NCBI GenBank assembly: GCA_002869165.1
Contig: PKTK01000009.1
Location: forward strand, 1-59,043
Direction: 5' to 3'
Length of the DNA stretch: 59,043 bases
Source of the DNA: Candidatus Parcubacteria bacterium
GTDB taxonomy: Bacteria; Patescibacteriota; Patescibacteriia; Patescibacteriales; UBA12075
A program made the position numbers and the translations under genes. This document shows positions 53,551 through 53,926 of this stretch, one piece after another (within the stretch, counting starts at the first letter, position 1; the number at the start of each line of letters is the position of its first letter). The notes below the pieces were generated by a model. That model made no database searches. It was not told where the DNA came from and saw only the letters and a list, made by a program, of their open reading frames with translations.

Positions 53551-53590
53551 GAGTGCGTAGCTCAGTTGCTTAGAGTGAGTTACGTTGACA
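53551..53590 (+). pseudogene. 5' tRNA fragment (acceptor, D-arm, partial anticodon arm)
   Basis: GAGTGCG-TA-GCTC-AGTTGCTTA-GAGT..TACGTTGACA; acceptor strand complementary to CGTGCTC at 53782-53788. Confidence 0.6.
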
Positions 53591-53600
53591 ATATATTATA

Positions 53601-53674
53601 GGACGGCTAGCTCAGTTGGTTAGAGCGCTACGTTGACATCGTAGAGGTCACAAGTTCAAATCTTGTGTCGTCCA
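53601..53674 (+). tRNA. tRNA-Val (GAC), CCA not encoded
   Basis: Full cloverleaf: GGACGGC/GTCGTCC, GCTC/GAGC, CTACG-TTGACAT-CGTAG, ACAAG-TTCAAAT-CTTGT. Confidence 0.97.
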
Positions 53675-53702
53675 CAAGAAATAAAATTTATTATGTAGAA
53701 GA

Positions 53703-53789
53703 ATCAGAGCGCCCCGGTTAATACCGGGCAGGTCAGAAATTTCCGCCCTAGGCGGACCAGCCTTGGGCTGGCAAATCTTCTCGTGCTCA
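53703..53789 (+). pseudogene. 3' tRNA-like fragment with a 29-nt twin-hairpin insertion in the T-loop (53743-53771)
   Basis: AGAGCG..CAGGTC-AGAAATTT[ccgccctaggcggaccagccttgggctgg]CAAATCTTCT-CGTGCTC-A. Confidence 0.6.
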
Positions 53790-53841
53790 CAAATAAATAA
53801 ATATTAAGTCGAAGCGGATCTTGTCCCGTCGGATAACGGGA

Positions 53842-53926
53842 TTGACATCGCAAGAGCTCACAAGTTAATCCAGTCATCCGACTGGATAGTCAGGTCGGAT
53901 GACCTGATAAATCTTGTGTCGTCCAC
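53842..53926 (+). pseudogene. Duplicated 3' half of tRNA-Val with a 42-nt twin-hairpin insertion in the T-loop (53867-53908)
   Basis: TTGACATCG..TCACAAGTT[insert]AAATCTTGTGTCGTCCAC matches 53633-53675. Confidence 0.8.

Follow-up and report, generated by a model that had tools for sequence, protein, structure and literature searches.

Hairpin-decorated tRNA pieces around a tRNA-Val gene of a Parcubacteria genome probably derive from selfish elements that target tRNA genes

We analyzed a 59,043-nt stretch of DNA from a Candidatus Parcubacteria bacterium (contig PKTK01000009.1, hereafter the window), in which an intact tRNA-Val(GAC) gene (V) lies among three further tRNA pieces. These are the 5' half (Y5') and the 3' part (unit 2) of a second tRNA gene, Y, and a copy of the 3' half of V (unit 3); units 2 and 3 are decorated with short GC-rich hairpins, two of them inserted as a pair (a twin) into each T loop. 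The window is contig C10 of a 1.43-Mb genome (G000; 33% G+C, 15 contigs). We consider it likely that the locus is a pile-up, free of open reading frames (ORFs), left by selfish tRNA-gene-targeting hairpin elements of this order of the Patescibacteria (Candidate Phyla Radiation, CPR). It is probably selfish-DNA debris of an apparently undescribed kind, and the practical message for the locus is modest: one working tRNA-Val plus debris.

Anatomy of the tRNA-Val locus

V was the only tRNA called in the window (68.4 bits in Rfam), and the gene is 100% identical in two related genomes found in a search of relatives. The intact gene amid the halves of a second tRNA had been described in the original prediction, at coordinates that agree with ours (Table 1) within 1-2 nt. 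Y5' reads GAGTGCG-TA-GCTC-AGTTGCTTA-GAGT...GTTGAC; its D arm is normal and shares an 18-nt match with that of tRNA-Val, and the piece stops at the anticodon GAC, so that Y would be another tRNA-Val. The acceptor strands GAGTGCG (Y5') and CGTGCTC (unit 2) pair, as predicted, at 7/7 positions (5 Watson-Crick and 2 G.U), and four positions of this stem are changed on both sides relative to the Val stem. The chance of 7/7 pairing is ~0.375^7 = 0.001 per register. Complete pairing with four two-sided changes argues that Y5' and unit 2 derive from one co-evolved tRNA. The 3' end of Y had no match beyond noise level (<=2 mismatches) in our survey set, which comprises 151 genomes from 83 genera of the same order as the source genome.

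The third piece does repeat the Val 3' half, at 53842-53927. Its first segment (53842-53866) differs from Val 53632-53655 by one indel and two substitutions, and its exact 19-nt end spans the 3' part of the T loop, the 3' strands of the T and acceptor stems, the discriminator and the next two bases. The T-loop inserts of units 2 and 3 had been given as 29 and 42 nt long and as sharing one position. The longer length holds (41-42 nt), the shorter is 30 nt, and the two sites, although both in the T loop, are one base apart (55/56 in unit 2, ~56/57 in unit 3). Both inserts fold into two perfect hairpins, with predicted RNA folding energies of -18.7 kcal/mol (unit 2) and -23.6 kcal/mol (unit 3). 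The twin of unit 3 consists of hairpin 1 (ATCCAGTC-ATCC-GACTGGAT, 53868-53887), AG, and hairpin 2 (TCAGGTC-GGAT-GACCTGA, 53890-53907). The loops ATCC and GGAT are complementary, as had been noted, because hairpin 2 is approximately the reverse complement of hairpin 1.

The promoter-like site ~18 nt 5' of Y5' is the sole promoter candidate for the whole array, and 53350-54100 holds no terminator-like site; the working Val gene is thus probably transcribed behind the Y5' relic. Rfam searches of 53300-54100, with gathering thresholds and in E-value mode, returned nothing besides the tRNA itself.

Table 1. Features of the tRNA-Val locus, in window positions
Feature	Position	Strand	Remarks
Promoter-like site TTTACA-16-TGnTATTAT	53505-53532	+	10/12 matches plus TG extension
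Y5', 5' half (positions 1-36) of second tRNA-Val(GAC)-type gene Y	53551-53589	+	pairs with 53782-53788
AT linker AATATATTATA between Y5' and intact tRNA	53590-53600	+	
Intact tRNA-Val(GAC), V	53601-53675	+	functional gene of the locus; ARAGORN, Rfam RF00005
Unit 2, whole	53702-53789	+	3' tRNA-like piece of Y
Unit 2, D-arm remnant AATCAGAGCG	53702-53711	+	tRNA positions ~18-26; compare GGTTAGAGCG in the Val gene
Unit 2, GC hairpin CCCCGG-TTAATA-CCGGG (CCCCGGTTAATACCGGG)	53712-53728	+	replaces entire anticodon arm; loop 6 nt
Unit 2, variable loop and T-stem 5' strand, C AGGTC AGAAA TT	53729-53741	+	A in place of the invariant G at position 53
Unit 2, canonical 30-nt twin hairpin TCCGCC-CTA-GGCGGA / CCAGCC-TTG-GGCTGG	53742-53771	+	between T55 and C56
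Unit 2, T-loop rest, T-stem 3' strand and acceptor 3' strand, CAAAT CTTCT CGTGCTC A	53772-53789	+	complementary to 53551-53557
Unit 3, hairpin H1, TCCCGTC-GGAT-AACGGGA	53824-53841	+	abuts anticodon loop; replaces 5' strand of anticodon stem
Unit 3, copy of tRNA-Val positions 32-55, TTGACAT CGCAAG AGCTC ACAAG TT	53842-53866	+	
Unit 3, twin hairpin, 41-42 nt	53867-53908	+	in T loop
Unit 3, 19-nt copy of Val 3' end	53909-53927	+	equals 53658-53676, 100% identical

The hairpin modules and their neighbors in the genomes of the order

We defined the canonical twin operationally as TCCGCC-NNN-GGCGGA-CCAGCC-NNN-GGCTGG with both stems intact, and searched for it with the pattern CCGCCNNNGGCGGNCCAGCCNNNGGCTGG at <=1 mismatch. 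The insert of unit 2 matches this consensus with 0 mismatches. The pattern occurs at 72 places in 35 of the 151 genomes and 30 of the 83 genera (1-8 per genome), against 0 matches for the reversed pattern; a search of relatives with the locus also matched the 30-mer at 93-97% identity in many genomes. In an alignment of 55 distinct copies the stems are invariant, the 3-nt loops variable and the flanks unrelated. Of these copies, 16-17 (~30%) lie in T loops (GGTTC/insert/GAATCC, then the tRNA 3' end) or D loops (GCTCAGTT/insert/GG) of tRNA gene fragments that adjoin an intact copy of the same tRNA, an enrichment in loops that make up well under 0.1% of the sequence of these genomes. Direct repeats of at least 5 nt (5-7, typically 6-7 nt; for example CAAATTA, CGGATTT, GTGTTTT and CAAGTT) flank 18 of the 55 copies, in non-tRNA DNA, whereas 200 trials with shuffled left and right flanks gave a mean of 3.6 and a maximum of 9. 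This excess over the shuffled expectation argues that the 30-mer at non-tRNA sites is a discrete insertion with target duplication. The flanks of the window's own twin, GAAATT/CAAATC, are ambiguous in this respect. Recurrence of such inserts elsewhere, to which the original prediction had looked, is thus found across the order. Its mini-element that repeatedly hits the tRNA remnants fared well as to dispersed modules and target duplications, but not as to T-loop specificity, as the element also occupies D loops, sites beside anticodon loops and AT-rich DNA of no special kind. Behind tRNA-Arg in another genome (G129:C69:1412-1914) we observed tandem 69-nt units; each combines a twin hairpin, in reverse orientation to the tRNA, with the copied 3' end of tRNA-Arg and a short linker.

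The hairpins of unit 3 are dispersed as well. The core CCAGTCATCCGACTGG (CCAGTC-ATCC-GACTGG) has 31 copies in 14 of the 151 genomes (control, 1 match) and the core CAGGTCGGATGACCTG (CAGGTC-GGAT-GACCTG) has 10 copies in 6 of the 151 (control, 0), so that all three hairpin types of the two inserts are members of dispersed sets. The consensus context of the unit 3 type, GGNTTCG(hairpin)CG(hairpin)CGAAYCC, is that of a T loop, on either strand. A BLAST search of G000 with the inserts found two further sites, C1:3305-3334 and C12:53799-53832, both adjoining tRNA genes. At the latter lies a hybrid (C12:53802-53834) that joins a unit-2-type hairpin 1 to a unit-3-type hairpin 2; by this evidence the two inserts of the window, which had been regarded as unrelated, belong to one family. 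A 2-bp (CG) target duplication for twins of the unit 3 type was considered and rejected, being inseparable from an extension of the hairpin stems. The anticodon-arm hairpin of unit 2 and H1 had no meaningful further copies in G000, and none adjacent to a tRNA for the former. We also considered an IS200/RAYT (IS200/IS605) origin of the hairpins and rejected it, as the presence of the Y1 (HUH) transposase does not track them: PF01797 had no match in G004, G021 and G006 despite 4-8 twins each, and G001 has 8 Y1 matches and no twin.

The adjacency of these modules to genes for small nucleases is seen in related copies elsewhere. In a search of 34 genomes with Pfam PF01541 we found 1-15 GIY-YIG ORFs of ~80-120 aa per genome. 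Such ORFs abut hairpins at G102:C1:127105-127311, G012:C42 (twice), G081:C114, G009:C23, G019:C24, G001:C2:605407 and 605809, G070:C7 and, in the genome of the window, C4:75497-75709. These ORFs number about six per megabase, so that any one hairpin copy would have an ORF within a few hundred bases by chance with a probability well under 1%. The cassette on G102:C1 runs from a twin hairpin through a GIY-YIG-motif ORF, tRNA-Glu and a 17-nt linker ending in GGTTC to a second twin hairpin, a 19-nt tRNA 3'-end copy and a terminator. That of G000 (C4:75437-75842) consists of a tRNA-Ser(GGA) 5' fragment with a twin in its D loop (C4:75453-75482, detected in a scan for adjacent hairpin pairs), the ORF, and the intact tRNA-Ser(GGA) at 75758-75842. 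The broken tRNA-Ser(GCT) on G070:C7 carries hairpins in the D loop, the anticodon region and the T loop (the last a twin); it is cut 7 nt past the twin and followed by the GIY-YIG ORF and then by the intact gene. The broken tRNA copy repeatedly ends within 5-10 nt of a hairpin, across independent cassettes, which argues that hairpin and break point are coupled. In the C4 cassette (75380-75860) we further noted that the tRNA-Ser(GGA) 5' fragment is GGAAGGTTCGCCTA, and that a 73-nt direct repeat takes in the end of the ORF, which suggests tandem cassettes.

The presence of the units also varies between close relatives. G116 and G102, of one genus, have flanks that are ~99-100% identical, yet three units differ within 500 bp. 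Only G116 has an 80-nt unit behind tRNA-Val(GAC), in which the 30-nt twin is accompanied by a 31-nt linker and a 19-nt repeat; only G102 has a 5' unit with a D-loop hairpin ahead of tRNA-Val; and only G116 has such a 5' unit ahead of tRNA-Ile(TAT). These differences are either recent gains or repeat-mediated losses. The 5' units themselves (G102:C1:128600-129020, G116:C1:140200-140720) have four parts: positions 1-16 of the tRNA, one D-loop hairpin (TTGCCCCGCCC-ATGC-GGGCGGGG), positions 19-31/37 in an imperfect copy, and a linker that resembles a promoter. Two genomes of the same family but another genus, G009 and G019, have a plan like that of unit 3 behind tRNA-Val(GAC): a hairpin stands just before TTGACATCGTAGAG, the variable loop holds a long hairpin and the T loop a twin, and an exact copy of their own tRNA 3' end follows. 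At the position of H1 they read TCCCGACGCTTCGGGA/TTGACAT (G019) and CGCCGTATGGCG GGA/TTGACAT (G009). The corresponding sites at tRNA-Val(GAC) are empty in G001 and G016.

Within G000, 17 of the 43 tRNA genes have their own 3' end (last 13-20 nt, at most one mismatch) copied 140-240 nt downstream on the same strand, behind a GC hairpin, and a listing of the downstream flanks of tRNA genes gave an additional unit behind tRNA-Pro(TGG). The 17 units are ~170 nt each (for example C12:87442-87700, C12:59740-59989, C4:52527-52780 and C14:372979-373230). They start with a bidirectional terminator, followed by a degenerate complement of the tRNA 3' end with a TGAGAAC loop, in which the differences are mostly C to T and give G.U pairs in plus-strand RNA. 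The middle part consists of a spacer rich in A+T, then the box TTGAGGGTG, then a GC hairpin whose most common form is GAGGCTTCCGCCTC; the end is TTCGAAT with the exact tRNA 3'-end copy. The site of the hybrid twin (C12:53740-53848) is the T loop of a tRNA-Leu(GAG) 3'-half copy, which stops after CAAGTCC and lies directly 5' of the intact tRNA-Leu(GAG). Ahead of this copy stands a pair of hairpins (CTCCCC...GGGGAG / CCCGAA..), also present at C14:441978, C14:560294 and C14:565040. Near-perfect double palindromes at C12:7919-7962 and C14:562271-562306 (one of them TCCAGACCTCCGAGGTCTGGA tc TCCAGACCTCGGAGGTCTGGA) have sequences unlike those of the tRNA-linked twins, and G000 would accordingly hold several families of GC-hairpin repeats.

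The tRNA inventory of G000 has peculiarities of its own. It includes tRNA-Ile(TAT) and tRNA-Arg(GCG) and no ACG (listed sites C8:207-280 and C4:52527-52599). ARAGORN placed an insertion of 237 nt in tRNA-Phe(GAA) and one of 207 nt in tRNA-Thr(GGT), within or next to the anticodon loop (C1:4672-4982 and C5:31098-31377), which is the size of group I introns; its 'intron' calls at C11:32985 and C14:164848 look spurious. The protein-coding neighbors of the Val locus are ordinary by Pfam (YqeY, a transglutaminase-like protein, HSP20 and VanW). The HSP20-family protein (window 54052-54558) has a long, extremely acidic N-terminal extension, with E/D runs over ~50 residues, before the alpha-crystallin domain. 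The spacer that separates the 53109-53411 ORF region from the promoter of the tRNA contains a run of nine G (ctctgggggggggcagg, window 53365-53378), which may be prone to slippage or mark a place sensitive to assembly.

A proposed origin of the locus and its alternatives

In the origin that we favor, an autonomous member of these elements would consist of a gene for an 80-120-aa GIY-YIG protein and a complete replacement tRNA gene (or its replaced part), and the cassette would sit beside a broken copy of the same tRNA. Breaks would fall in the T, D and anticodon loops and be capped by short GC hairpins, single or paired. The flanking tRNA sequence probably serves as homology for copying the cassette, by break repair, into the same tRNA gene of other genomes, and the nuclease would in this way mobilize the hairpins. 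The canonical twin would also insert alone, with a 6-7-bp target duplication. The array of the window can then be read, from its one promoter, as the Y 5' half, the working V, the hairpin-decorated Y 3' part (unit 2) and the hairpin-decorated V 3' part (unit 3). Y would be the older Val(GAC) gene and V the working one, with at least two rounds of replacement or insertion and a subsequent loss of any nuclease gene. The inserts would be DNA-level modules without a function in RNA, most likely never excised from it, and the decorated pieces would be non-functional in translation.

Several points weigh against this origin. The window has no GIY-YIG ORF or remnant (Pfam on the flanking ORFs; tblastn of 52801-54300 with the six GIY-YIG proteins of the genome gave noise only), and the nuclease link rests on the related copies elsewhere. 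By genome, the numbers of GIY-YIG ORFs and of canonical 30-mers are uncorrelated, the mean being ~6 ORFs with or without the 30-mer; for this link only adjacency is informative, not genome-level counts. The twins in tRNA loops are without target duplication, so that two insertion routes must be assumed. No hairpin caps the break at 53589/53590 that ends Y5'. The interleaved order Y5'-V-Y3'-V3' is not uniquely derivable: V and its trailer could represent an insertion within the anticodon arm of Y; alternatively, removal of 53712-53823 leaves AGAGCG, H1 and TTGACAT..., a match to the Val unit of the G019 type. At least two nestings fit equally, each with at least two events. An intact replacement tRNA should moreover stay a target, and the proposed origin does not account for its immunity. 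Finally, hairpin positions are conserved across genera and their stems change in a compensatory manner (TCCGCC/GGCGGA versus CCCGCC/GGCGGG; CCAGCC/GGCTGG versus TCAGCC/GGCTGA), which would fit a selected structure in RNA or in single-stranded DNA.

This last point speaks for a functional structure, in which the units would be co-transcribed with the tRNA. They might draw off, as decoys, nucleases or integrases directed at tRNAs, provide a guide or address that matches the end of the tRNA gene, or be a processing or stability element. A single promoter and an array without a terminator make co-transcription probable, and the 19-nt 3' copy is identical to each genome's own tRNA; this identity fits a recent insertion or gene conversion equally well. 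The complementary loops of unit 3, which the original prediction had seen as a possible kissing pair, change together from ATCC/GGAT to ATTC/GAAT in two relatives, but such covariation is automatic if hairpin 2 arose by inverted duplication of hairpin 1, and does not demonstrate kissing. A function is harder to reconcile with units that are present or absent in near-identical genomes and missing at the same tRNA in close relatives, with twins in both orientations relative to the tRNA, and with the same 30-mer bounded by target duplications in unrelated AT-rich DNA; nor do the units match any Rfam family. We regard a functional structure as unlikely. It is also rather improbable, in our estimate, that two unrelated processes met at this locus, namely attL/attR-type scars of deleted integrase islands and an independent hairpin repeat that resembles repetitive extragenic palindromic (REP) sequences or miniature inverted-repeat transposable elements (MITEs) and is tolerated only in dead tRNA copies. 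Integrases classically leave direct repeats of tRNA 3' ends, and the anticodon loop, at which unit 3 starts, is among their known sublocations; the 30-mer does transpose by itself, and since its insertion into an essential tRNA would be lethal, survivors would accumulate in dead copies. An integrase-type duplication from the anticodon loop, as suggested in the original prediction, indeed explains a part of the layout, but only a part. Between the repeats there is no integrase, cargo, arm-type repeat or credible ORF, although an integrase may have been deleted earlier, and the units measure only 60-250 nt. Independent events would not yield broken copies that end so close to a hairpin in many independent cassettes, the tRNA-loop copies are without target duplication, and the Y1 transposase does not co-occur with the 30-mer. 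The pieces are probably not attR remnants of integrases, and the related copies belong to cassettes of a GIY-YIG gene with a replacement tRNA.

A split or nested functional tRNA, with the inserts removed and the halves in Y5' and unit 2 joined or paired after excision of tRNA-Val, had been the other suggestion, and we find it very hard to sustain. It would predict CCA-tailed molecules ending in CGTGCTCA. The fully paired acceptor stem with its four compensatory changes speaks for it, as do the T stems, which close around both inserts in predicted folds. ARAGORN does draw a cloverleaf when the twin is deleted and the D arms are fused, but labels it 'tRNA-???': its loop (TTAATA) has 6 nt and no anticodon, and A replaces G53. 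Y5' and unit 2 overlap in the D arm and do not abut, units 2 and 3 were called as tRNA neither by ARAGORN nor by Rfam, and no bulge-helix-bulge motif was seen at the insert borders. EndA (PF01974) had no match genome-wide at E <= 0.1, whereas 4/4 archaeal control genomes were positive. The genome has the intact Val(GAC), and the proposed check of its tRNA inventory found all 20 amino acids covered without the extra pieces. The decorated copies examined in G070, G012, G102 and G004 all lie beside an intact twin of the gene. Group I introns were rejected as the source of the inserts, which are 30 and 42 nt long, in the T loop and without an Rfam intron match, in place of the expected core of ~200+ nt in the anticodon loop.

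Within the selfish-element origin, we tentatively consider a bolder possibility, to which we give less credence than to the origin itself: that the hairpins and the 80-120-aa GIY-YIG proteins jointly form a structure-guided system of tRNA-gene replacement. A nuclease without a DNA-reading domain would cut tRNA genes at loop-coding positions, perhaps in extruded stem-loops. Repair from the cassette, with its tRNA sequence as homology arms, would lead to homing across genera, and a hairpin cap would be left at each cut loop of the displaced copy. If this were true, the decorated relics would be a readable history of successive tRNA-gene replacements, and a relic might also protect against renewed cutting.

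Comparison with known systems

If the selfish-element origin is true, very small selfish elements contend for the tRNA genes of otherwise minimal CPR genomes, and the 30-nt twin is among the smallest mobile DNA elements known, landing in biology's most conserved loops. Horizontal replacement of one allele by another, as between Y and V, appears to occur, and the mini GIY-YIG proteins are candidates for structure-specific nucleases that choose their targets by a new logic. In CPR genomes, hairpin units must be reckoned with by tRNA finders, in pseudogene calls and in claims of split tRNAs. A literature search found no account of hairpin inserts in the tRNA loops of CPR bacteria.

The archaeal tRNAs with introns at non-canonical positions, and the archaeal split tRNAs, resemble the locus in the extra sequence of T or D loops and in halves with pairing acceptor strands. 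They differ from it in that the locus has no splicing endonuclease, no bulge-helix-bulge and no anticodon loop in the rebuilt gene, and that an intact isoacceptor is always present. Integrative elements, as Williams reportedly set out in 2002, target tRNA and tmRNA genes and duplicate their 3' part, with sublocations at the anticodon loop, the T loop and the 3' end; cis-mobilizable mini-derivatives of tRNA-targeting integrative elements exist. The likeness lies in a repeat of the tRNA 3' segment that brackets the insert, a functional tRNA that is rebuilt, breaks at the anticodon and T loops, and tandem stacking. Unlike such elements, the units described here have no integrase or cargo and measure 60-250 nt, GC hairpins in the loop stand at the junctions without a shared core, and D-loop duplications of the 5' side are equally common.

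Rickettsia palindromic elements and REP sequences are miniature palindromic insertion elements. Further mini-palindromes of AT-rich genomes are the mitochondrial double-hairpin elements, the repetitive hairpin-forming elements and the GC clusters of yeast (PMC2800124). Like these, the twins are very short GC-rich (double) hairpins, dispersed in an AT-rich genome, patchy across lineages, bounded by short direct repeats at many sites and tolerated inside RNA genes; the mitochondrial ones stay in the transcripts. At 30 nt, in contrast, the twin is at the extreme low end of size, its stems are near-invariant across 30 genera, ~30% of its copies sit precisely in the T or D loops of tRNA fragments beside an intact copy, and some copies accompany a nuclease cassette, with no link to a Y1/RAYT transposase.

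Free-standing GIY-YIG homing endonuclease genes are a further analogue, for example SegB of phage T4, which lies in a tRNA gene cluster (PMC2988022, PMC13096335). As with SegB, the CPR cassettes have a small GIY-YIG gene between tRNA genes, inherited with neighboring tRNA sequence, and spread by break repair through the flanking homology would be expected. The CPR ORFs, whose products would be putative homing nucleases, differ in being only 80-120 aa long, without a recognizable DNA-binding domain, and chromosomal; they are also tied to a duplicated or broken tRNA copy and to GC hairpin caps in its loops, and the copy in the window is ORF-less. The combination of a 30-nt twin, placement in tRNA loops, a duplicated tRNA end and a mini nuclease sets these elements apart, as none of the nearest analogues unites all four.

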